A stretch of DNA of 64,000 nt from a virus (lineage: Duplodnaviria > Heunggongvirae > Uroviricota > Caudoviricetes), in the IMG/VR virus record IMGVR_UViG_3300010430_000005, positions 19,467 to 83,466 of that record; one strand, 5' to 3'. Position 1 is the stretch's first letter; the number at the start of each line of letters is the position of its first letter. Of the stretch, positions 2,509 through 40,686 are shown one piece after another. The notes beneath the pieces are model-generated. The model worked only from the letters and a program-made list of their open reading frames with translations. It was not told the DNA's origin and ran no database searches. A program made the translations under genes and the position numbers.

Positions 2509-3438
2509 ATGGCTTCATCATTTAGTTCACTTAAAAAATCCCGCACCAATGCTTTTGATAAGCTCAACAAACAGCTTTCTAGCATGGCAAACAGCGGTTA
2601 TTCCAACCCAGACGAAGATAAATATTGGCAGCCTAAAGTAGACGCTTCGGGTAACGGTATGGCTATCATCAGATTCCTTCCGGCACCTAACGGTGAAGAT
2701 ATGCCCTTTATTCGTCTTTGGACACACGGTTTTCAGGGCCCTTCGGGCAAATGGTATATTGAAAACTGCCGTTCTACAATTAACGAAGATGACCCGGTCA
2801 ACGATCTCAACAACACTCTTTGGAATAGCGGTGTTGAGGCAGACAAAGAAATCGCACGTAAACAAAAACGTCGTTTGAGCTACATCTCAAATATCTATGT
2901 TGTGCGCGATCCTAGCAACCCAGATAACGAAGGTAAAGTATTCTTGTACAAGTACGGCAAGAAAATCTTCGATAAGCTGAACGATGCTATGAACCCAGAG
3001 TTTGAGGGCGAAGTGGCCGTTAATCCGTTCGATTTCTGGGAAGGCGCAAACTTCCGTCTAAAGATCCGTAAGGTAGAAGGTTATCGCAACTACGATAAAT
3101 CGGAGTTTGATTCTCCAGAGGCATTGCTAGATGACGATGATAAACTAGAGGAAATCTGGAAACAGCAACATTCCTTGCAGGAAATCATCGACCCTAAAAA
3201 CTTCAAGCCATACGATGAGCTAAAGAAAAAGCTGGACATGGTATTGGGTAAAAACACTTCTTCTTCCTCGGCTGCGACAGCAAATGACGAAGATATGGGT
3301 AGCAGCAGCGACTTTGATCTATCTAAACTAGGTTCCTCGGACCCCGAACCAGAAATCAATTCCTCCTCTTCTGAAGATAGTGGTTCTGGCGAAGTTGATG
3401 ACGATATCGCGTTTTTCCAATCTCTAGCAAATAGCTAA
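2509..3438 (+). CDS. 32: single-stranded DNA-binding protein (T4 gp32 family)
   Basis: The blocks WQPKVDASGNGMAIIRFLPAPNGEDMPFIRLWTHGF...GKWYIENCRST, FLYKYGKKIFDKL and WEGANFRLKIRKV are colinear with T4 gp32. Acidic C-terminal tail. Confidence 0.9.
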   Translation: MASSFSSLKKSRTNAFDKLNKQLSSMANSGYSNPDEDKYWQPKVDASGNGMAIIRFLPAPNGEDMPFIRLWTHGFQGPSGKWYIENCRSTINEDDPVNDLNNTLWNSGVEADKEIARKQKRRLSYISNIYVVRDPSNPDNEGKVFLYKYGKKIFDKLNDAMNPEFEGEVAVNPFDFWEGANFRLKIRKVEGYRNYDKSEFDSPEALLDDDDKLEEIWKQQHSLQEIIDPKNFKPYDELKKKLDMVLGKNTSSSSAATANDEDMGSSSDFDLSKLGSSDPEPEINSSSSEDSGSGEVDDDIAFFQSLANS

Positions 3439-3740: not shown

Positions 3741-5186
3741 ATGAGCCTTTTAGATAAAATGCTTAAGAGCGGCAGCACTAAGAATACTACACTATTGTCC
3801 AAGTCGGACTTTTTCGGAGGAGACGAGTCCAACATTGTTCCTATTGGCATTCCGATTCTTAACACGGCTTTCAGCGGAGAAATTGACGGCGGTTTGACAC
3901 CAGGACTTATTGTTGTCGCGGGAGCGAGTAAGACGTTCAAAACTATGATTTCTTTGCTATGTATGAAAGCATTCTTAGATAAATACGATGACGGTATCGC
4001 TCTGCTTTATGATTCAGAATTTGGCATTACACCTGAGTATATCGAAAGTTTCGGGATCGACACAGAACGAGTTGTCCATATACCCATCGAGAATATCGAA
4101 ATACTGAAATTTGACCTTGTAGGTAAGCTACAAGAAATCGATAAAAAAGATAATGTCTTTATTATGATAGATTCTGTAGGCAACTTGGCTTCTAAAAAGG
4201 AAGTCGAAGACGCCGAGAATGAAAAGTCTGTAGCAGACATGACTCGTGCTAAATCTCTCAAATCGTTGTTTAGGATCATCACTCCTCACCTAACAATGAA
4301 AAAGATTCCTTGCTTGGCTATCAACCACATATATCTCGAGCAGGGTCTTTATCCGAAAGCTATTGTCTCGGGTGGATGCTTAGATGGTTCTACGGAAATT
4401 ATTATGTCCGACGGTTCAACAAAGAAGATTCAAGACATAGACGCTGGCGAATCCGTACTTACTCTTGAAGGCGGGCGTGAAGTTACGCACACATGGGACC
4501 CCGACACATTAGAAGAAGGAACGCCAGAGTGTTACGAAATAAAGTTCGACGATGGTAGTAGTGTCATTTGCTCGGATTCGCACCGGTTTATGAATATGAA
4601 CGGTGAATGGGAAGAAGTGTCATTACTTAACGTCGGAGACGTTCTGGGGCAAGAAACAAAAAAAATCACTTCTATAAAAAAAATAGGTAAGCGGCCCGTA
4701 TACGATATTACAGTCAGTGACGTGGCCCATTACATCTTAAAAAACGGCTTAGTGTCTCACAACACAGGTGTGATGTATTCTGCAAACCAAGTGTTCATCA
4801 TTACTAAATCGCAAGAAAAAGATGGCACTGATCTAGCAGGTTACAAATTCACCATCAACATTGAAAAATCGAGATATGTACGAGAAAAAGCCAAACTTCC
4901 ATTTACTGTTTTGTACGAAACAGGTATCAGAAAATGGTCAGGAATGTTTGACTTAGCACTCGAATTCGGTTATGTTGTAAAAGCGAATCAAGGCTGGTAC
5001 AACAAGGTAGACTTCGAAACAGGCGAAGTGATTGAACCTAAGTGCCGAGCCAAAGACATAGACAACGATGACGAGTTCTTCGAAGCGCTAGTTAAAGATT
5101 CGGCTTTCAAAAAATTCATAGAGAAAAAATATAAGTTGGGTGCCCCGTTGTTAGATCAAGGGGAGCATCAGGAACCTGAGGAGTAA
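3741..5186 (+). CDS. uvsX: UvsX/RecA-family recombinase interrupted by an in-frame mini-intein
   Basis: RBS ggagaataatATG. RecA-type Walker A in GLIVVAGASKTFKT. Extein similarity to UvsX resumes after the insert (TGVMYSANQVFIITKS). Confidence 0.8.
   Translation: MSLLDKMLKSGSTKNTTLLSKSDFFGGDESNIVPIGIPILNTAFSGEIDGGLTPGLIVVAGASKTFKTMISLLCMKAFLDKYDDGIALLYDSEFGITPEYIESFGIDTERVVHIPIENIEILKFDLVGKLQEIDKKDNVFIMIDSVGNLASKKEVEDAENEKSVADMTRAKSLKSLFRIITPHLTMKKIPCLAINHIYLEQGLYPKAIVSGGCLDGSTEIIMSDGSTKKIQDIDAGESVLTLEGGREVTHTWDPDTLEEGTPECYEIKFDDGSSVICSDSHRFMNMNGEWEEVSLLNVGDVLGQETKKITSIKKIGKRPVYDITVSDVAHYILKNGLVSHNTGVMYSANQVFIITKSQEKDGTDLAGYKFTINIEKSRYVREKAKLPFTVLYETGIRKWSGMFDLALEFGYVVKANQGWYNKVDFETGEVIEPKCRAKDIDNDDEFFEALVKDSAFKKFIEKKYKLGAPLLDQGEHQEPEE
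4377..4763 (+). other. mini-intein (Hint domain) inside uvsX
   Basis: Insert starts at Cys (CLDGSTEIIMSDG, block A-like) and ends in ...LVSHN followed by Thr (+1 nucleophile). About 129 aa with no homing-endonuclease domain. Confidence 0.7.
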
Positions 5187-5191
5187 TTTTT

Positions 5192-6616
5192 GTGATCGAA
5201 AAGACTATTTTATCGAATCTACTATATAATGAGGAGTATGCTCGAAATGTTTTTCCTTACATCAAAGAAGAATATTTCGAGAGTCAATCACAGAAAAAAT
5301 TATTCCAGGCTTATAGCGAATACATGGACAACTTTAAGGAGCCTCCTTCAATGGAGGCTCTTCAAATCACTATCGAAAATTTGAAGGGTGTTAACGAAGA
5401 GACGTTCAAAGAAATAAACAAGCTGTGCGATAGTTTGGAAGTAGACGAAAAGACTAATCAGCAATGGCTAGTCGGAGAAACAGAGAAGTTTTGTCAAGAA
5501 AGAGACCTATACAATTCTATCCATCGAGCTATCCTCATCATCCAAGGCGAGGATAAAGTTAACGATAAAGGCAACATTCCTAAGATGCTGTCTGACTCGC
5601 TAGGAATTAGTTTCGACAGTAACCTAGGACACGACTACGCCGAAGACTTAGACGAGCGATATGAATTTTACCACAGGAGAGAAGAGCGCATAGAGTTTGA
5701 TATTGACCTCCTCAACACCATTACAAAAGGCGGTCTGCCTCGAAAATCCTTGACTGTTTTTATGGCCGAAACAGGCGGCGGTAAGACTATCGTTAAGTGT
5801 CACGCGGCGGCAGCAGCATATGCTCTAGGCAAAAATGTCCTTTACATTACAGCAGAAATGGCAGAAGAACGCATCGCCGAACGTATAGACGCTAATCTAT
5901 TGGGTGTTACTATGGATGAAGTGAAGGAAATTCCGAGAGACGTATTTGCCAAAAAAGTCAATCGCGTTAAGAGCAAAACTCCTGGCAGACTAAAGATTAA
6001 GGAATACCCCACAGGTGCCGCACACGCGGGACACTTTAGGCATTTCATTAATGAACTCCAAATGAAAGAGAACTTTGTCCCCGATATCATTTTTATAGAT
6101 TACTTGAACATATGCGGGTCCTCAAGAATCAAAGGTGCGGCTGCGGCTAATTCTTATACGTTGGTTAAGTCCATCGCAGAAGAACTACGTGGTCTAGCTA
6201 TGGAATTCAACCTACCCATTGTAACCTCGACTCAGCTAAACAGGGGCGGTTATGGTAACAGCGAGGTTGACTTGACTAACATCTCCGAATCCATGGGTCT
6301 TGGACACACTGCAGATGCTATCTTTGCTATTATCAATTCGGAAGACTTGAGTGACAGAGGGCAGATAATGTTCAAGCAATTAAAGAATCGCTGGGGAGAT
6401 CTAAATTATTACAGAAAGTTTGTAGTGGGTATAGACCGTTCTAGAATGAAACTATATAACGTAGATTTATCCGCACAATCGGAAATTGAAGGCAACAACA
6501 GCCAAAAGTCGAACAATTCTAGCGGGCCGTCGAGCAAGTTAGATTTCGACACGCCGACATTCGATAAAACTAGATTTGGTAAAAAGAGAAACTTTTCTAC
6601 AGGAGGAATAAAATGA
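5192..6616 (+). CDS. 41: DnaB-like replicative DNA helicase (T4 gp41 family)
   Basis: GTG start with GGAG RBS. Walker A FMAETGGGKT. DnaB-family motifs (YITAEMAEERIAERI, SESMGLGHTAD). Confidence 0.85.
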   Translation: MIEKTILSNLLYNEEYARNVFPYIKEEYFESQSQKKLFQAYSEYMDNFKEPPSMEALQITIENLKGVNEETFKEINKLCDSLEVDEKTNQQWLVGETEKFCQERDLYNSIHRAILIIQGEDKVNDKGNIPKMLSDSLGISFDSNLGHDYAEDLDERYEFYHRREERIEFDIDLLNTITKGGLPRKSLTVFMAETGGGKTIVKCHAAAAAYALGKNVLYITAEMAEERIAERIDANLLGVTMDEVKEIPRDVFAKKVNRVKSKTPGRLKIKEYPTGAAHAGHFRHFINELQMKENFVPDIIFIDYLNICGSSRIKGAAAANSYTLVKSIAEELRGLAMEFNLPIVTSTQLNRGGYGNSEVDLTNISESMGLGHTADAIFAIINSEDLSDRGQIMFKQLKNRWGDLNYYRKFVVGIDRSRMKLYNVDLSAQSEIEGNNSQKSNNSSGPSSKLDFDTPTFDKTRFGKKRNFSTGGIK

Positions 6617-29152: not shown

Positions 29153-29776
29153 ATGATTGTCATGCAGGGTAAATTGCCGCGTAAAGTTAGTGTAGCATGT
29201 AGCGGGGGTGTCGATAGTATGGCCGTCGTCGACTTCCTAAAACGAAATCATAATGTGACTTTGTTGTTTTTTCATCACGGCACAGAAACCAGCGAAAAAG
29301 CATACCAATTCCTTAAATCGTATTCTTCAGCTAACGGCGTAGAATTAATATCAGAACGCATTAAAGATACTTCTGTTCCTAAAGATCAGAGTCAAGAGGA
29401 ATATTGGCGTAATTGTCGATATAAGTTTTTCCTTAACCGCGACGAGCCCGTTGTAACATGCCACCACCTTGACGATTGTGTCGAGACTTGGGTTTGGAGC
29501 TCTTTGAATGGAAACGGCAAGATCATTCCTTACAATAACCGTAACGTTATTAGGCCCTTTAGGGTCAATAAAAAGTCTGAATTTGTTTCTTGGGCCAAAC
29601 GAAATGATGTGCCGTGGGTAGAGGACGAGAGCAACAAAGATACAAAATATACTCGAAATTTTATTAGACACGAAATGATGCCAAAAGTTTTGACTGTTAA
29701 TCCCGGCATCCACAAAACTATTGCTAGAAAGGTGAGAAAAGATTATGGGAAATTATGTAGTAAAACCTCCTGTTGA
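29153..29776 (+). CDS. PP-loop (SGGxDS) ATP-pyrophosphatase family protein (TilS/QueC-like N-type ATPase)
   Basis: VACSGGVDSMAVVDFL PP-loop motif near the N-terminus. About 207 aa. Confidence 0.55.
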   Translation: MIVMQGKLPRKVSVACSGGVDSMAVVDFLKRNHNVTLLFFHHGTETSEKAYQFLKSYSSANGVELISERIKDTSVPKDQSQEEYWRNCRYKFFLNRDEPVVTCHHLDDCVETWVWSSLNGNGKIIPYNNRNVIRPFRVNKKSEFVSWAKRNDVPWVEDESNKDTKYTRNFIRHEMMPKVLTVNPGIHKTIARKVRKDYGKLCSKTSC

Positions 29777-36429: not shown

Positions 36430-36799
36430 TGACATAATATTGTGGGTTGGCCTACCTGGTTCGGGCAAAACCTACAATGCCCAAAAATACTGTGATATTG
36501 TCATTGATGATATCACTGACCTTTCGCAGTTACCATCCTCAGAAGAAATTAAAGGAAAGCGATTGGGTATCGCAGATGTAAACTTCTGCGACAAGAAAAT
36601 TCTTCACAAAGCAATATCAAAAATCTTGGAAATTTATCCAAGCGCAATGATTGACATATATTATTTTGAAAATGACGTCGACAAATGTCGTGCTAATGTG
36701 TTATATCGTAATGATGGTAGAAATGTAGAAGGAACCATTCTAAGATTTGAAAAAATATACGAACCGCCTAAGTGGGCGGCTAAAATATGGAGTGAATAA
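36422..36799 (+). CDS. P-loop kinase (polynucleotide 5'-kinase-like, stand-alone)
   Basis: Walker A VGLPGSGKTY at the N-terminus. 125 aa. Sits directly upstream of an RNA ligase. Confidence 0.45.
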   Translation: MYSDIILWVGLPGSGKTYNAQKYCDIVIDDITDLSQLPSSEEIKGKRLGIADVNFCDKKILHKAISKILEIYPSAMIDIYYFENDVDKCRANVLYRNDGRNVEGTILRFEKIYEPPKWAAKIWSE

Positions 36800-36800
36800 A

Positions 36801-37853
36801 ATGCTACTAACACGCGACGAATTCAGAAATAAAGTTTTTGAACGAGATAACCATCGTTGCGTGATATGTGGCGCAACTGAAAGTGATACTGTCAAACTTG
36901 ATGCACATCACATCATTGAACGCCGTTTGTGGTTGGATGGTGGCTATTATGTTGATAATGGGGCAACTCTTTGCGATAAAGGCGAAGATGGTTGTCACAT
37001 GAAAACAGAAATCACAACATTGTCAGTTGACGATATTCGCATTGCTGCCAACATTCAAAAACCTATCATACCAGAAGATATGTATGCAGACCACGTTTAT
37101 GACAAATGGGGTAATATCATATTGGGCAATGGAACCAGAACTAAGGGTCCGTTGTTTGGAGACGAATCTGTTCAAAAGGTTTTGTCGAAACATCCAAACT
37201 TTGAAAGTTTGTTTGTTGACTATGTGAAATATCCGAGAACTTATCACCTTCCATGGTCATTGGGTATTACGGATGATGATCGTATTATGCGTGATTTGTC
37301 TAATTTCGAAGGTAAGCGTGTTATTGTTACACGTAAAATGGATGGCGAAAATTTCACAGGATATAATGACTATAGTCATGCACGTTCTGTGGATGGACGC
37401 CACCATTATACCAGAGATTGGGCAAAGAATTTTTGGATGCAGCGTTCTTATGAATTGCCAAAAGGATGGCGTGTATGCGCTGAAAATCTCTATGCAGTCC
37501 ATTCAATTCGGTATGATGATCTTGACAGTTATCTTATGGGGTTTTCGATTTGGAATGATAAAAACGAATGCCTGTCTTGGGATGAAACAGTAGAATGGTT
37601 TCAACTTCTAGACATTCCTAGCGTTCCAGTCTTGTATGACGGTATCTTTGATGAAGAAAAGATCAAATCTCTTTATGATGTAAAGGAAGATTATGATAAT
37701 CATGAAGGGTATGTTATGCGAACTGCGGATGGGTTCAACTATGGAAATTTTAAAAATTGTGTTGCTAAATTCGTAAGACCAAATCACGTGCAATCGCAAA
37801 AGCACTGGTTTTATGGGAGAAGCGACCATGATGTAAATGGGATGAAAGAATGA
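36801..37853 (+). CDS. HNH-motif domain fused to Rnl2-like ATP-dependent RNA ligase
   Basis: RBS ggagtgaataaaATG. N-terminal HNH motif CVICG...LDAHHIIERRLW...NGATLC...CH. Nucleotidyltransferase motif I VTRKMDGENFTGY (compare Rnl2 KIHGTNF). Confidence 0.5.
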   Translation: MLLTRDEFRNKVFERDNHRCVICGATESDTVKLDAHHIIERRLWLDGGYYVDNGATLCDKGEDGCHMKTEITTLSVDDIRIAANIQKPIIPEDMYADHVYDKWGNIILGNGTRTKGPLFGDESVQKVLSKHPNFESLFVDYVKYPRTYHLPWSLGITDDDRIMRDLSNFEGKRVIVTRKMDGENFTGYNDYSHARSVDGRHHYTRDWAKNFWMQRSYELPKGWRVCAENLYAVHSIRYDDLDSYLMGFSIWNDKNECLSWDETVEWFQLLDIPSVPVLYDGIFDEEKIKSLYDVKEDYDNHEGYVMRTADGFNYGNFKNCVAKFVRPNHVQSQKHWFYGRSDHDVNGMKE

Positions 37854-38122
37854 GTATACATTTCAATTTCGACATAACAAATCCGTTTGTAAAAAAACAC
37901 TGCGGCAAAACCATTTTTTTCTTTGAACCAAAAGTATCTAAAAACAAGGCAATCTGCTTCCAGTTCGATGGATTTGATTGGAAGCAGATATTTGAAATTG
38001 GTTTTTGGTGGAGAGATAAAACTATGGGTCATTGGGGTATGAGTATAGAATTCGGACTTTTAGGGTTTTGGTTCAACTTAGACTTTTATGATATCAGACA
38101 TGTAGAGGAAGATGATGAATAG
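37850..38122 (+). CDS. hypothetical protein
   Basis: 90-aa ORF with ATGA overlap. Confidence 0.35.
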   Translation: MSIHFNFDITNPFVKKHCGKTIFFFEPKVSKNKAICFQFDGFDWKQIFEIGFWWRDKTMGHWGMSIEFGLLGFWFNLDFYDIRHVEEDDE

Positions 38123-38627
38123 AAAATATCTTGTATTTTTGGACATTGACGGTGTTTTTACATCGTCAAGAGTCCATTATGCACATAATGCAGAATATGG
38201 TATGTGGCATAGGTTTGATCCTGTTGCGGTCGATTTTTTGAATCGTATCCATGACACTTATCCTGTTGAATTTGTTCTAATGTCAACATGGAAAAATAAT
38301 ATAAAATATGATCATAAAATGATCGAACATTGGGTTCGTTCTGCATTTGCTAATAGTGGGTTTCGTGGAATGATTGCCAAACCATGGAAGGCTGATCCGG
38401 ACGATTTTGCGGTAATGAAGCGTTGGGATAGGGCACATGAAGTCAAAGATTATCTAGAAAACTTCGGAGAAGATGTAAAAGACTTCATCTTGTTTGATGA
38501 TAACGCATATCGTTTCAAGGAAATTCTTGGTAAAGGTAGACTTGTTAGAACCGATCCAGACAATGGATTGCTACATAAACATATGCTAAATGCTATGTCT
38601 ATCATGGGAACTTGGGTGGAGAAATGA
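38112..38627 (+). CDS. HAD-superfamily phosphatase (DxDG motif; Pnk-phosphatase-like)
   Basis: N-terminal LVFLDIDGVFTS matches HAD motif I DxDx(T/V). Motif IV-like FDDNAYR. Confidence 0.5.
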   Translation: MMNRKYLVFLDIDGVFTSSRVHYAHNAEYGMWHRFDPVAVDFLNRIHDTYPVEFVLMSTWKNNIKYDHKMIEHWVRSAFANSGFRGMIAKPWKADPDDFAVMKRWDRAHEVKDYLENFGEDVKDFILFDDNAYRFKEILGKGRLVRTDPDNGLLHKHMLNAMSIMGTWVEK

Positions 38628-38718: not shown

Positions 38719-39018
38719 ATGAAAAAGTTCTTGACAGCAGTTGCTATTTGTGTTACTCTGCCAACAATCGCACTAACAGAAACAGTTTATTACCCACAAG
38801 AATCTTGTGCAGAAATTGTTTCTCAAGAATATTCTACTGGTGGCGGTAATACGTCTTGGCAATATCTGGAAATCCTGTGTAAAGACAAAGATGGTAAATA
38901 TACTGGTTTTGTCGCTAGTTGGGGTTCTGTTGCAGGGTTTCTTGGCGCTGGTCGTTGGGATATGGTCGATCGTTTCGATTATGTTCCGTACAAAGGAAAA
39001 ACTCTGAAAGTAGAGTAA
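38719..39018 (+). CDS. small secreted protein
   Basis: RBS aaaaggagaaaaataATG. N-terminal signal peptide KKFLTAVAICVTLPTIALT. Confidence 0.45.
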   Translation: MKKFLTAVAICVTLPTIALTETVYYPQESCAEIVSQEYSTGGGNTSWQYLEILCKDKDGKYTGFVASWGSVAGFLGAGRWDMVDRFDYVPYKGKTLKVE

Positions 39019-39025
39019 AAAGTTC

Positions 39026-39054
39026 TTGACAAGCACATATACATGTAGTATAGT
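39026..39054 (+). promoter_or_regulatory. sigma70 consensus promoter TTGACA-17-TATAGT driving the tRNA-like RNA
   Basis: -35 at 39026-39031 and -10 at 39049-39054. Predicted TSS around 39061, 7 nt before the acceptor-like stem. Confidence 0.6.
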
Positions 39055-39067
39055 GCTTAAATAGTTT

Positions 39068-39187
39068 CCCGCTGTGGTGTAACGGTTAGCACACGTGCAC
39101 AAAGTCAATCCTGCAAAGGATTGTTACAGCAACAAAATTGCATATCATTGGAAGATCGTGGTCTAGGTTCGATTCCTAGCGGCGGGA
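39068..39187 (+). ncRNA. tRNA-like non-coding RNA, ~120 nt, non-canonical (candidate Y RNA, or intron/insert-containing tRNA)
   Basis: Acceptor-like stem CCCGCTG/CGGCGGG (one G-U pair). D-arm GTGT-AACGGTTAGC-ACAC. Canonical T-arm CTAGG-TTCGATT-CCTAG. Discriminator A with no encoded CCA. About 67 nt lie between the D- and T-arms instead of about 22-40, containing the hairpin CAATCC-TGCAAA-GGATTG, so no standard anticodon arm could be drawn by hand. Confidence 0.5.
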
Positions 39188-39261
39188 CTGTTAATTGAAT
39201 ACCTAGGTTAGATTCGGCAGAGTCTAATTAAAACAAAACTAACCTGAAAGGAGAATATAAG

Positions 39262-40686
39262 ATGAACACTTTTTCTAACGCAGTTGCTAATATCAAATCA
39301 AAAGAAATCTCACGCACCGAAAACGGTATGAAAGCTTTTGCTACTTCCGATTCTAAAGTTCTTGACCTATTTGGTAAGATCGGTTCTGGTCGCGGTCGTG
39401 ATATGTCTCGCGAATTTATGGCAGCACTTGGTGAAGATCAAGAACTTGCGATTCGTGTTCTCCTATGGGCACGTGATGTTCGTGGTGGTGCGGGTGAACG
39501 CGAAACTTTCCGTTCGCTACTAAAGGCGCTAGAAAACGGCAATCCGACACTTGCTGGTAAAATCATGCACCTAATCCCGGTTCTGGGTCGTTGGGATGAT
39601 CTGTTCGTGTATGAGGATGCTATCAACCGTAAAGCAGCACTTCGCATGTATGCAGATGCTCTTACGGACGGAAATGGTCTAGCCGCAAAATGGGCACCGC
39701 GTGAAAAGTCAACCAAGAAAGAACGTGCAGCAATGCTACGCAAATTCATGGGTCTTTCACCTAAGGAATATCGTAAACTCCTAGTCTCGAATACGAATGT
39801 TGTGGAGACTCAAATGTGCGCGAAGGACTGGGGAGGTATCGACTTTTCGAAAGTTCCTTCTCTAGCGTCTGCACGTTATCAAAAGGCATTTGGTCGTAAT
39901 GCGAGCGAGCAATATGCAGCATACATTCGTGAACTCCAAAAGCCTCAGGCAGAGCGCAATCCGAAAGTTAAAATTAATGCTGGTGCAGTATACCCATATG
40001 ATATTGTGAAGTCTCTATCAAAAGGTAATGCTGCTGTTGCGGATGCACAATTCGAAGCACTCCCAAACTATGTAGGTGATTCTAAAATCCTACCAATGGT
40101 TGATGTTTCGGGTTCTATGTATACTCCACTTGCTGGAAATACCAATGCACTTGAAGTTGCTATCTCACTAGGTCTGTATCTTTCTGACCGCACCAGTTCT
40201 GATTTTAAGGACATGTTCCTTACTTTCTCTGGTGAGTCAAAGATCGAAACCCTAAAAGGTAGTCTGTCACAGAAGTATAACCAACTTCGTCGTGCGGAAT
40301 GGGGAATGAACACTAACCTACACTCTGCGTTTGAGGAAATTCTTCGAGTTGCAAAGGACGGCAATGTCTCGCAAGAGAACATGCCAGACACTGTTCTTAT
40401 CCTTAGTGATATGCAGTTTGATCGTTGCGTTCGTCACGATGACAATGCTCTTGGCATGATTAAACGCAAATATGCAGAAGCGGGATACACTATGCCTTCT
40501 GTTGTATTCTGGAACCTAACTGCACGTGCTGATAACACACCAGTTAAAACTAACGACAAAGGCGTTGCCCTTGTTTCGGGTTTTAGTCCAGCGATCATGG
40601 CAACGGTTCTTGGTGCGGATCCTACGGAATTTACACCATATGCAATGATGCTAAACACTATCATGAGCGACCGTTACAATTTTTAA
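39262..40686 (+). CDS. rsr: Ro60-like protein (TROVE domain + C-terminal vWA/MIDAS domain)
   Basis: RBS aaaggagaatataagATG. N-terminal TROVE-like region (LFGKIGSGRGRD...IRVLLWARDVRGGAGER...LIPVLGRWDDL). vWA MIDAS motif MVDVSGSM with a downstream Ser/Thr/Asp series. Same architecture as bacterial Rsr. Confidence 0.65.
   Translation: MNTFSNAVANIKSKEISRTENGMKAFATSDSKVLDLFGKIGSGRGRDMSREFMAALGEDQELAIRVLLWARDVRGGAGERETFRSLLKALENGNPTLAGKIMHLIPVLGRWDDLFVYEDAINRKAALRMYADALTDGNGLAAKWAPREKSTKKERAAMLRKFMGLSPKEYRKLLVSNTNVVETQMCAKDWGGIDFSKVPSLASARYQKAFGRNASEQYAAYIRELQKPQAERNPKVKINAGAVYPYDIVKSLSKGNAAVADAQFEALPNYVGDSKILPMVDVSGSMYTPLAGNTNALEVAISLGLYLSDRTSSDFKDMFLTFSGESKIETLKGSLSQKYNQLRRAEWGMNTNLHSAFEEILRVAKDGNVSQENMPDTVLILSDMQFDRCVRHDDNALGMIKRKYAEAGYTMPSVVFWNLTARADNTPVKTNDKGVALVSGFSPAIMATVLGADPTEFTPYAMMLNTIMSDRYNF

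Follow-up and report, generated by a model that had tools for sequence, protein, structure and literature searches.

What is the 120-nucleotide (nt) element that lies on the plus strand at positions 39068-39187 of a 64,000-nt stretch of the Caudoviricetes record IMGVR_UViG_3300010430_000005 (here called the window, meaning the whole stretch analysed)? It has the arms of a transfer RNA (tRNA), and an original prediction, made from the letters alone, held it to be too long for a canonical one and took it for a tRNA carrying a small intron or insert, for one that had degenerated, or for a tRNA mimic. The excess length was confirmed; a 48-nt arm splits the anticodon stem. The mimic became the best supported option, because the insert is a module that flanks genes for Ro60-like (DUF2828) proteins in other phages. 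A gene of this kind starts 75 nt downstream of the element, on the same strand. We consider it probable that the element is a non-decoding, tRNA-shaped, Y-RNA-like partner RNA of the phage Ro60-like protein, built in true tRNA topology. The element had been treated as separate from a Ro60 hypothesis for this locus; the two proved to be one story, the arm matching the DUF2828-linked module.

Anatomy of the element

The element is a complete tRNA-Pro(UGG)-like cloverleaf plus an extra 48-nt arm at position 28/29. Its parts are given below; R1 and R2 are two models of our own, described in later sections.

39068..39187, plus strand: armed tRNA-like RNA gene, 120 nt (Rfam tRNA model 39.6 bits; R1 125.3 bits; covariation)
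39068..39074, plus strand: 5' strand of the acceptor stem, CCCGCUG (DNA CCCGCTG), partner CGGCGGG at 39180-39186; 7 base pairs (bp), one U-G
39075-39076, plus strand: positions 8-9, U8 G9
39077..39092, plus strand: D arm, GUGU / AACGGUUA / GCAC (DNA GTGT-AACGGTTA-GCAC); helix 2, 98.7% paired
39094..39095, plus strand: outer anticodon-stem pairs, C27 G28 with C42 G43 (39157-39158), from the Rfam alignment; helix 3, compensatory changes in 2/2 pairs
39096..39143, plus strand: extra arm, 48 nt, interrupting the 5' strand of the anticodon stem at 28/29 (R2 match; its stem, helix 5, covaries and is 96% paired)
39096-39099 / 39139-39142, plus strand: arm base helix, 4 bp, UGCA / UGCA
39100-39105 / 39124-39138, plus strand: arm internal loop, CAAAGU opposite UUACAGCAACAAAAU
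39106-39112 / 39117-39123, plus strand: arm stem, 7 bp, CAAUCCU / AGGAUUG
39113-39116, plus strand: arm cap, a GCAA tetraloop
39144..39156, plus strand: inner anticodon stem-loop, AUC / AUUGGAA / GAU (deletion of the arm yields an ARAGORN tRNA-Pro(tgg))
39163..39179, plus strand: T arm, CUAGG / UUCGAUU / CCUAG; helix 7, 100% paired
39187, plus strand: discriminator position, A; no CCA encoded

The tRNA features that are kept comprise the four arms, U8, G18-G19, the T-loop nucleotides, C1-G72, A73 and the 7-nt UGG loop, which holds U33, the "anticodon" UGG (39149-39151) and A37. The 5-bp anticodon stem is split 2+3 by the arm (C27-G28 plus A-U-C, with GAUCG), and one spare U lies between the arm and the inner part of the stem. 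The internal loop of the arm is conserved as CAAAGU // UUACAGCAA. A 7-bp acceptor stem with one G-U pair, a D arm and a T arm had all been predicted, and all are present. The region between the D and T stems is indeed overlong (70 nt, close to the predicted 67, where about 21 are expected), but the claim that this stretch stands in place of an anticodon arm overlooked the retained anticodon stem-loop, with its split 5-bp stem and its loop AUUGGAA. The hairpin CAATCC-TGCAAA-GGATTG is present at 39106-39123; its supposed 6-nt loop, however, contributes an extra U-A pair, which leaves a 7-bp stem and the GCAA tetraloop.

Default ARAGORN found no tRNA across the whole 64-kilobase (kb) window, and an Rfam scan of the whole window at gathering thresholds with default filters found nothing, the element included. 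In the intron-detection mode that had been recommended, ARAGORN called a tRNA with a 50-nt "intron", and in silico removal of 39096-39143 gave a textbook 72-nt tRNA-Pro(UGG) with a 5-bp anticodon stem, so that the option of an insert is literally true. When the filters were relaxed on a 351-nt piece, RF00005, the tRNA model of Rfam, matched the element end to end (model positions 1-71) at 39.6 bits (gathering threshold 29, E 3.9e-7), handling 61 nt as an insertion in the place of the anticodon arm. The original prediction was to fall if a good standard tRNA model covered the whole element; the model does cover it, but skips these 61 nt. The element is therefore real and non-random, but it is not a standard tRNA. 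Where a standard tRNA has a contiguous 5-bp anticodon stem and about 70-95 nt in total, the stem here is split and the length is 120 nt. The sole other weak Rfam match in the 351 nt, RAGATH-17, was rejected as noise (21 bits against a gathering threshold of 102). By ARAGORN and R1, the element is the only tRNA-like gene in the window.

Homologous armed tRNAs and their covariation

Comparison with the tRNA genes of related phages, which had also been advised, revealed homologous armed tRNAs, about 45 in number and with strong covariation. A blastn match led to Vibrio phage CZ01; CZ01, KVP40 and about 50 related Vibrio phages carry two to five copies in a tRNA cluster, where the copies are unannotated or labelled "hypothetical protein" or "tRNA-OTHER". 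Orthologous elements lie just upstream of the DUF2828 gene in the related loci L212, L213, L216, L218, L219 and L226, which came from near-identical protein look-ups, and L013 has two elements in tandem, each ending ACCA. Conservation of the element extends to phages in which the DUF2828 protein is only about 45-89% identical to that of the window. Model R1 was built from 11 copies and has 21 full-length members at 53-126 bits, the window element scoring 125.3 bits. On 818 kb of unrelated viral contigs it matched ordinary tRNAs only (63-151 nt, at most 37.8 bits). A DNA pattern for the closed arm matched 74 IMG/VR loci, about the chance number by our estimate, and R1 matched at 47-91 bits in 26 of these 74.

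Covariation was measured on two sets of sequences. In the first (19 distinct sequences), 93% of the cells were paired and compensatory changes occurred in 24 of 31 pairs, which 0 of 500 shuffles reached, and partners slid along the alignment were paired in 32-40%. The independent set, 25 distinct sequences that took no part in model building, gave 92% paired cells, compensatory changes in 23/31 pairs, 0/500 shuffles, and 32-51% for slid partners. The acceptor, D, T and module stems of the first set were each 96-100% paired (99% for the acceptor stem, with compensatory changes in 7/7 pairs). The split anticodon stem was 83-90% paired, and the weakest helix is the arm base, at 65-70%. Fitting of the alignments to the model, done for both sets, biases them towards the structure, a concern that the slid controls and the independent set limit. 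The E-values of our own models are rough.

These data bear directly on the notion of a decaying tRNA pseudogene disrupted by an insertion. Default tRNA finders do reject the element, and some homologues are labelled "tRNA-OTHER". However, compensatory changes occur in every helix, the insert included, and the element is conserved across the range of DUF2828 proteins given above and has a strong dedicated promoter. The covariation effectively refutes decay, which we regard as extremely improbable, and with it goes the option of a degenerate tRNA: all arms covary in both the 19 and the 25 distinct homologues. The T4 RNAs rnaC and rnaD, stable RNAs from the tRNA cluster of that phage, were tried as relatives and rejected; R1 gave only 17.8 bits, on the T arm of rnaC, and neither RNA carries the module described below.

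In KVP40 (L004), five armed tRNA-like genes lie on the minus strand at 2905-3017, 4571-4691, 4702-4814, 4933-5055 and 5323-5442. They use differing tRNA bodies, one of them Asn-like with the loop CUGUUAA and another with the arm replacing the anticodon loop. None of the five is annotated as RNA in RefSeq, and related records list them as "tRNA-OTHER". In KVP40 coordinates, copies A and B lie at about 181,300-181,880.

Homologues are also informative as to whether the element could be a working tRNA-Pro that retains its arm, is aminoacylated and takes part in translation, the arm being only a regulatory or stabilising handle. The element has C1-G72, A73, G35-G36, and U33 and A37 in a 7-nt loop, which we take to be the identity elements of E. 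coli ProRS. Most orthologues encode CCA, and UGG is kept in 6 of the 8 distinct orthologues of the window clade. On the other hand, the remaining two have UGA and an 8-nt loop at 81-89% protein identity, and many members of the family have 8-nt "anticodon" loops. As read from the sequences, the "anticodon" does not appear to be fixed among close orthologues (UGG, UGA, 8-nt loops), a point that we count in favour of a non-decoding partner RNA. Moreover, a protruding 48-nt helix at the anticodon stem would be expected to collide with the 30S subunit, and in KVP40 the armed copies stand beside two plain tRNA-Pro(UGG) genes. The same arm occurs in Asn-like and Tyr-like bodies of phages that also carry plain tRNAs. 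The element differs from canonical tRNA-Pro(UGG) and RF00005 in its 120-nt length, in the conserved, structured 48-nt arm in the 5' strand of its anticodon stem, and in an anticodon that its orthologues seem to keep only in part (UGG in 6/8). We judge a translating, arm-bearing tRNA-Pro to be quite unlikely.

The arm and the DUF2828-linked module

Upstream of DUF2828 genes in 80 IMG/VR loci we saw a bipartite module, 5'-UUUAGGNNNN(G)UUCAGCAA ... (G)CAAAAAGU-NNNNCCU-GUU-3', with the core form 5'-AGGNNNN-(G)UUCAGCAA ... CAAAAAGU-NNNNCCU-G-3'. The arm of the window element is its closed hairpin form; elsewhere, the module is the terminal stem around tRNA-like bodies adjoining DUF2828 genes. The core motif was found 125 times on the gene strand versus 20 times on the opposite strand. 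For 59 of 88 matches, the start codon followed at a distance of no more than 500 nt, and none was on the opposite strand in upstream windows of 700 nt. The complementary 3' strand followed by NG was present in 71 of 88 distinct matches versus 22.9 expected, and the stems of the module covary freely (GGAUCG/CGAUCC, GGUUAA/UUAACC, GGAUGC/GCAUCC). Several looser searches were discarded. The loose pattern GCATATCA N3-9 AGATCG gave essentially chance matches, and its loci were kept as negative controls; a 6-bp partner test that allowed G-U pairs was too permissive (63/65 versus 46 expected) and was replaced by the stricter one; and a relaxed motif expression sharply raised the background.

For model R2, the two strands of 42 open modules were joined in silico, with no armed-tRNA sequence included. 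Run with filters off on the 64-kb window, R2 gave a single significant match, at 39092-39136 (34.4 bits, E 2.6e-8), and the runner-up had 15.7 bits. Most arms of the other armed tRNAs matched R2 at 19-50 bits, and control loci at no more than 15.7; the weak spots were the KVP40 type C arms, with only 15.6-17 bits, and type E, with no match. By these sequence comparisons, the arm is shown to be homologous to the gene-linked module. Linkage points the same way: when armed tRNAs were drawn by the DNA pattern alone, without any use of the protein, a DUF2828 gene lay within the fetched flank in 8 of 26 armed tRNAs versus 1 of 48 other pattern matches (Fisher p = 0.0007). The module and tRNA bodies are combined in three topologies.

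L049, L053 and L066 (architecture i): D arm, anticodon-like hairpin and T arm, the module replacing the acceptor stem; partial Rfam tRNA matches; parallel in Yrn1
L010, L072 and L068 (architecture ii): T arm, loop-closed acceptor hairpin and D arm, the module enclosing them; parallel in YrlA
Window element (architecture iii): complete tRNA that contains the module as an internal hairpin; no parallel found

Every characterised Y RNA pairs its 5' and 3' ends to make the stem that Ro60 binds (10.1101/312249). The first architecture resembles Yrn1 of Deinococcus radiodurans, for which Chen et al. described the same orientation: the order is D arm, anticodon-like arm and T arm, and a protein-binding stem replaces the acceptor stem. 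Unlike Yrn1, the window element keeps its acceptor stem and carries the module elsewhere, and the two have no sequence similarity. The nearest family is YrlA (RF02553). Like YrlA, the window element is encoded beside, and on the same strand as, a gene for a protein with a predicted Ro60 fold, and it combines tRNA-like parts (D arm, T arm, acceptor stem) with a separate conserved stem module. YrlA genes are also often near RNA ligase genes, as the element is (PMC4201824; 10.1101/312249). In YrlA, however, a loop closes the acceptor stem and leaves no CCA end free (10.1101/312249), whereas the ends of the window element lie in its acceptor stem and its module is an internal, GCAA-capped hairpin. 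Furthermore, the window element keeps an anticodon stem-loop, of which YrlA has none, and its presumed partner is a DUF2828/DUF7788 protein, not a canonical Ro60 orthologue. Compared with known Y RNAs, the Ro60/Y-RNA principle would here take a new topology and use a docking motif and a protein partner that are also new; no Y RNA has been described as a tRNA of true topology that carries a docking arm.

The YrlA arrangement itself is found, exactly, in a permuted homologue. The element right after the DUF2828 stop codon of L010 is a circular permutation of the window RNA: 58/70 and 34/46 positions are identical in swapped order, the acceptor and module stems covary, and the acceptor stem is closed by a 12-nt loop starting CCA, which is the topology of YrlA. 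The same RNA is therefore seen in normal and in permuted order, and the insert of the window element is in the anticodon stem, as in the permuted and intron-bearing pre-tRNAs of algae and archaea. Unlike these, the window element has no bulge-helix-bulge that we could see by eye. One conceivable reading is that the arm is a protein-recognised handle for splicing and permutation: armed pre-tRNAs would lose the arm, and permuted kin such as that of L010 would be cut at the module and rejoined there. The work would be done by the end-healing enzymes of the phage and its RNA ligase, while the Ro60-like ring keeps hold of the module. If true, this would be a protein-dependent pathway of tRNA splicing and un-permuting in bacterial viruses, and tRNA genes would be invisible to sequence-specific host defences until maturation. 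We hold this to be a long shot.

A simpler version is an intron-containing tRNA-Pro(UGG) gene. A protein endonuclease, together with the RNA ligase of the phage, would remove the arm after transcription and give a decoding tRNA; in a variant, the Ro60-like protein possibly holds the arm during removal. The flawless 72-nt tRNA-Pro left by removal of 39096-39143 and the ARAGORN intron call (option -i) are what such a gene would give, the split anticodon stem covaries (helices 3 and 6), RNA ligase and phosphatase genes lie 1-2 kb upstream, and the element is the sole tRNA-like gene of the window. Against this, the insert, at 48 nt, falls far short of a group I intron (core of about 200 nt or more), its junctions make an ordinary 4-bp helix, and no intron or ribozyme family in Rfam matched 38950-39300 at E<=10. 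Position 28/29 is no known bacterial or phage intron site, no bulge-helix-bulge was seen, and we know of no splicing endonuclease in bacteria or their phages. The 8-nt "anticodon" loops of many members also argue against it. Finally, the same module is found in places where an intron is impossible, since it forms the terminal stem in open RNAs and lies in a messenger RNA (mRNA) leader. Taken together, these observations make an intron unlikely, and a partner RNA of the Ro60-like protein remains our preferred reading.

Other RNAs beside DUF2828 genes deserve mention. A second tRNA-like element, with a weak match to YrlA, lies right after the permuted one in L010 (10000-10077, minus strand). Several open RNAs contain look-alikes of anticodon stem-loops (L049 1011-1105, L053 764-859, L066 1849-1943 and 2916-2980, L059 2811-2870, and L015, L017 and L018), with 7-nt loops CUNNNAA and the "anticodons" UGU, UAU, UUU, GCA, CGA, GAA and UGA; decoys or sensors for differing anticodon nucleases would fit this pattern. 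The DUF2828-carrying phage contig L059 also has a permuted transfer-messenger RNA at 801-1015 (Rfam tmRNA_permuted, 79.3 bits).

The Ro60-like protein and a possible role for the RNA

The genes and signals around the element are as follows.

39262..40686, plus strand: Ro60-like protein gene, 474 amino acids (aa), HEAT-repeat ring plus vWA domain (Pfam DUF2828 2e-20, DUF7788 1.2e-48)
39026..39054, plus strand: sigma-70-type promoter, TTGACA-17 nt-TATAGT, 11/12 matches, the best of 2.4 kb scanned
39205..39246, plus strand: second, open module, AGGUUAG-AUUCGGCA...CUAACCU-G, in the leader of the DUF2828 mRNA (14/14 close relatives)
36747..37853, plus strand: HNH plus RNA ligase gene (Pfam RNA_ligase 2.4e-26; PHROG 24030 RNA ligase), an RNA-repair context
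38112..38627, plus strand: HAD phosphatase of the "Swiss Army Knife RNA repair" type (Pfam HAD_SAK_2 2.8e-19), an RNA-repair context

The window protein is of the DUF2828 type, not a canonical TROVE orthologue, and matches PHROG 850, "RNA-binding protein". An AlphaFold model, based on 32 homologues (pLDDT, the predicted local distance difference test, 75.6), had its best full-length match in Ro60 of Thermus phage phiLo (9KOP, E 2.5e-8), then in Xenopus and human Ro60; the next structural matches were isolated vWA domains at E about 1e-2. Sequence and profile searches of the PDB with the protein gave no match, so that only the predicted fold links it to Ro60. Accordingly, we predict a Ro60 fold for the DUF2828/DUF7788 protein. 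Among isolates, the phage has no close relative; in metagenomes, the protein has many relatives at 64-100% identity. At least 711 sequenced phage genomes encode Ro60-like DUF2828 proteins, among them members of the Felix O1, KVP40, Listeria, Staphylococcus and mycobacteriophage groups, and the felixounavirus homologue is about 42% identical to the window protein.

The promoter has its predicted start at about 39061, 6-7 nt ahead of the acceptor stem, and a AAAAAGTTnTTGACA...TATAnT signal likewise precedes the elements of orthologous loci. Between the element and the DUF2828 gene there is no terminator-like site. The leader module ends 3 nt ahead of the Shine-Dalgarno sequence GGAG (39250-39253) and is kept in 14/14 close relatives examined, with or without the tRNA-like gene. 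Judged from its sequence, it looks like a translational switch or operator. The leader can form two mutually exclusive helices: the long-range AGGUUAG/CUAACCU helix, which abuts the Shine-Dalgarno sequence, and a competing local hairpin at 39208-39227, UUAGAUUC-GGCA-GAGUCUAA. Both helices show compensatory changes in L012 and L225 (AGGUUGA/UCAACCU; UUGAAC/GUUCAA), and the same site is found in L012, L013 and L212-L226.

This arrangement raises the question of whether the element itself acts only in cis, its tRNA-like fold being an RNase P processing or stability signal of the DUF2828 mRNA with no role in trans. The element does lie between promoter and gene with no terminator in between, and the module also occurs in the leader beside the Shine-Dalgarno sequence. 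However, KVP40-type copies are in a tRNA cluster about 12 kb from the DUF2828 gene, and L013 has its tandem copies, each ending ACCA. A purely cis-acting element therefore appears rather improbable.

If the element is a partner RNA of the Ro60-like protein, it would be made from its own early promoter, in one transcript with the mRNA of the protein, and be cut out by RNase P and 3' processing. In every characterised Y RNA, a conserved stem is the part that the protein binds, and the remaining RNA recruits or blocks partners (10.1101/312249; PMC4201824). By analogy with Ro60 and Y RNAs, we propose that the Ro60-like ring would bind the arm, as Ro60 binds the conserved Y RNA stem, and leave the complete tRNA body exposed. 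The exposed body would mimic a tRNA, either recruiting tRNA-handling enzymes or acting as a decoy or sensor for tRNA-targeting host nucleases. Such mimicry might benefit the repair enzymes encoded next to it (RNA ligase and phosphatase) or counter-defence. Through the leader module, the protein would repress its own translation. The context parallels an operon of Salmonella, in which rsr and yrlA are found with rtcBA (PMC4201824), because RNA ligase and HAD_SAK_2 phosphatase genes lie upstream of the element as well (compare rsr-yrlBA-rtcBA).

Several observations weigh against this proposal. Binding of the arm by the protein is put forward from analogy and linkage. The proposed fold has only standard pairs at -23.8 kcal/mol, but the minimum free energy fold, at -36.3 kcal/mol, is a different one; thermodynamic folding alone did not recover the cloverleaf, and the structure therefore rests on covariation, not energy. 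Despite having the gene and the leader module, L012, L220, L221, L222, L224 and L225 have no armed tRNA within 2.5 kb. The armed tRNA thus seems dispensable for the protein in several close relatives. The perfect tRNA restored by deletion of the arm, UGG in 6/8 orthologues, C1-G72 and A73 fit an intron-bearing or working tRNA-Pro too. As for YrlA, its motif GNCGAA(N0-1)G is absent from 39068-39187 by inspection, the conserved strand being AGGNNNN(G)UUCAGCAA, and RF02553 had no match at E<=10 on 38950-39300. The only YrlA match was the second element of L010 (23.4 bits, gathering threshold 69), and none of 12 related loci matched at gathering level.

The Ro60-like DUF2828 family is common in phages, and in the sole paper that we found on this type of protein its RNA partners were a guess (PMC11482910). 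In that paper, Bas63 gp130, which has a Ro60-like structure and is encoded directly upstream of the tRNA genes of the phage, counters the Ppl defence, and the authors speculated that some of the neighbouring "tRNA genes" may be Y RNAs (PMC11482910). Bas63 gp130 is a candidate for the felixounavirus homologue of the window protein. Full-text literature searches found no RNAs described with DUF2828 or DUF7788, and no family of Rfam 15 covers the module or the armed tRNAs in the window element and related loci scanned. The present analysis defines a likely RNA partner, with a signature in sequence and structure by which the docking module can be recognised. Dozens of genes in phage tRNA clusters that are unannotated or called "tRNA-OTHER" fit the family, the five of KVP40 among them. 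Candidate uses of tRNA mimicry by a Ro60 partner are tRNA repair, decoys for anticodon nucleases and counter-defence, and experimentalists gain concrete RNAs of about 120 nt.

In Escherichia phage Alf5 (L229), two open module variants, AGACCAA-UUACAGCAA...UUGGUCU-GG, lie at 4200-4600 between the annotated tRNA-Glu and tRNA-Tyr genes, among the tRNA genes downstream of the DUF2828 homologue. The same interval contains two unannotated tRNA-like sequences with odd D arms. Alf5 belongs to the phage group in which a Ro60-like protein has been reported to counter Ppl.

Two further genes recur near the locus. An approximately 235-aa class II aminoacyl-tRNA synthetase core (Pfam tRNA-synt_2b, a family that includes ProRS) is encoded downstream of the DUF2828 gene in two relatives with a Pro-like armed tRNA (L212 5150-5851, L213 5085-5801); the window has no homologue. 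In almost every close relative, the gene for a PP-loop ATPase of about 210 aa (Pfam ATP_bind_3, TilS family) directly precedes the locus (L213 2064-2699, L212, L216-L226), and its homologue in the window, 56% identical, lies 10 kb upstream at 29153-29743. Several armed tRNAs elsewhere carry CAU-containing loops, for example AUUCAUAA and ACUCAUAA; presumably these resemble tRNA-Ile2, the substrate of TilS. Lastly, AAAAAGTTCTTGACA occurs twice within 300 nt, at 38722-38735 in the start of a 99-aa open reading frame and at 39018-39031 in the -35 region of the promoter. An A-rich-TTGACA signal also precedes the orthologous elements, and this signal resembles what we take to be T4-type early promoters.

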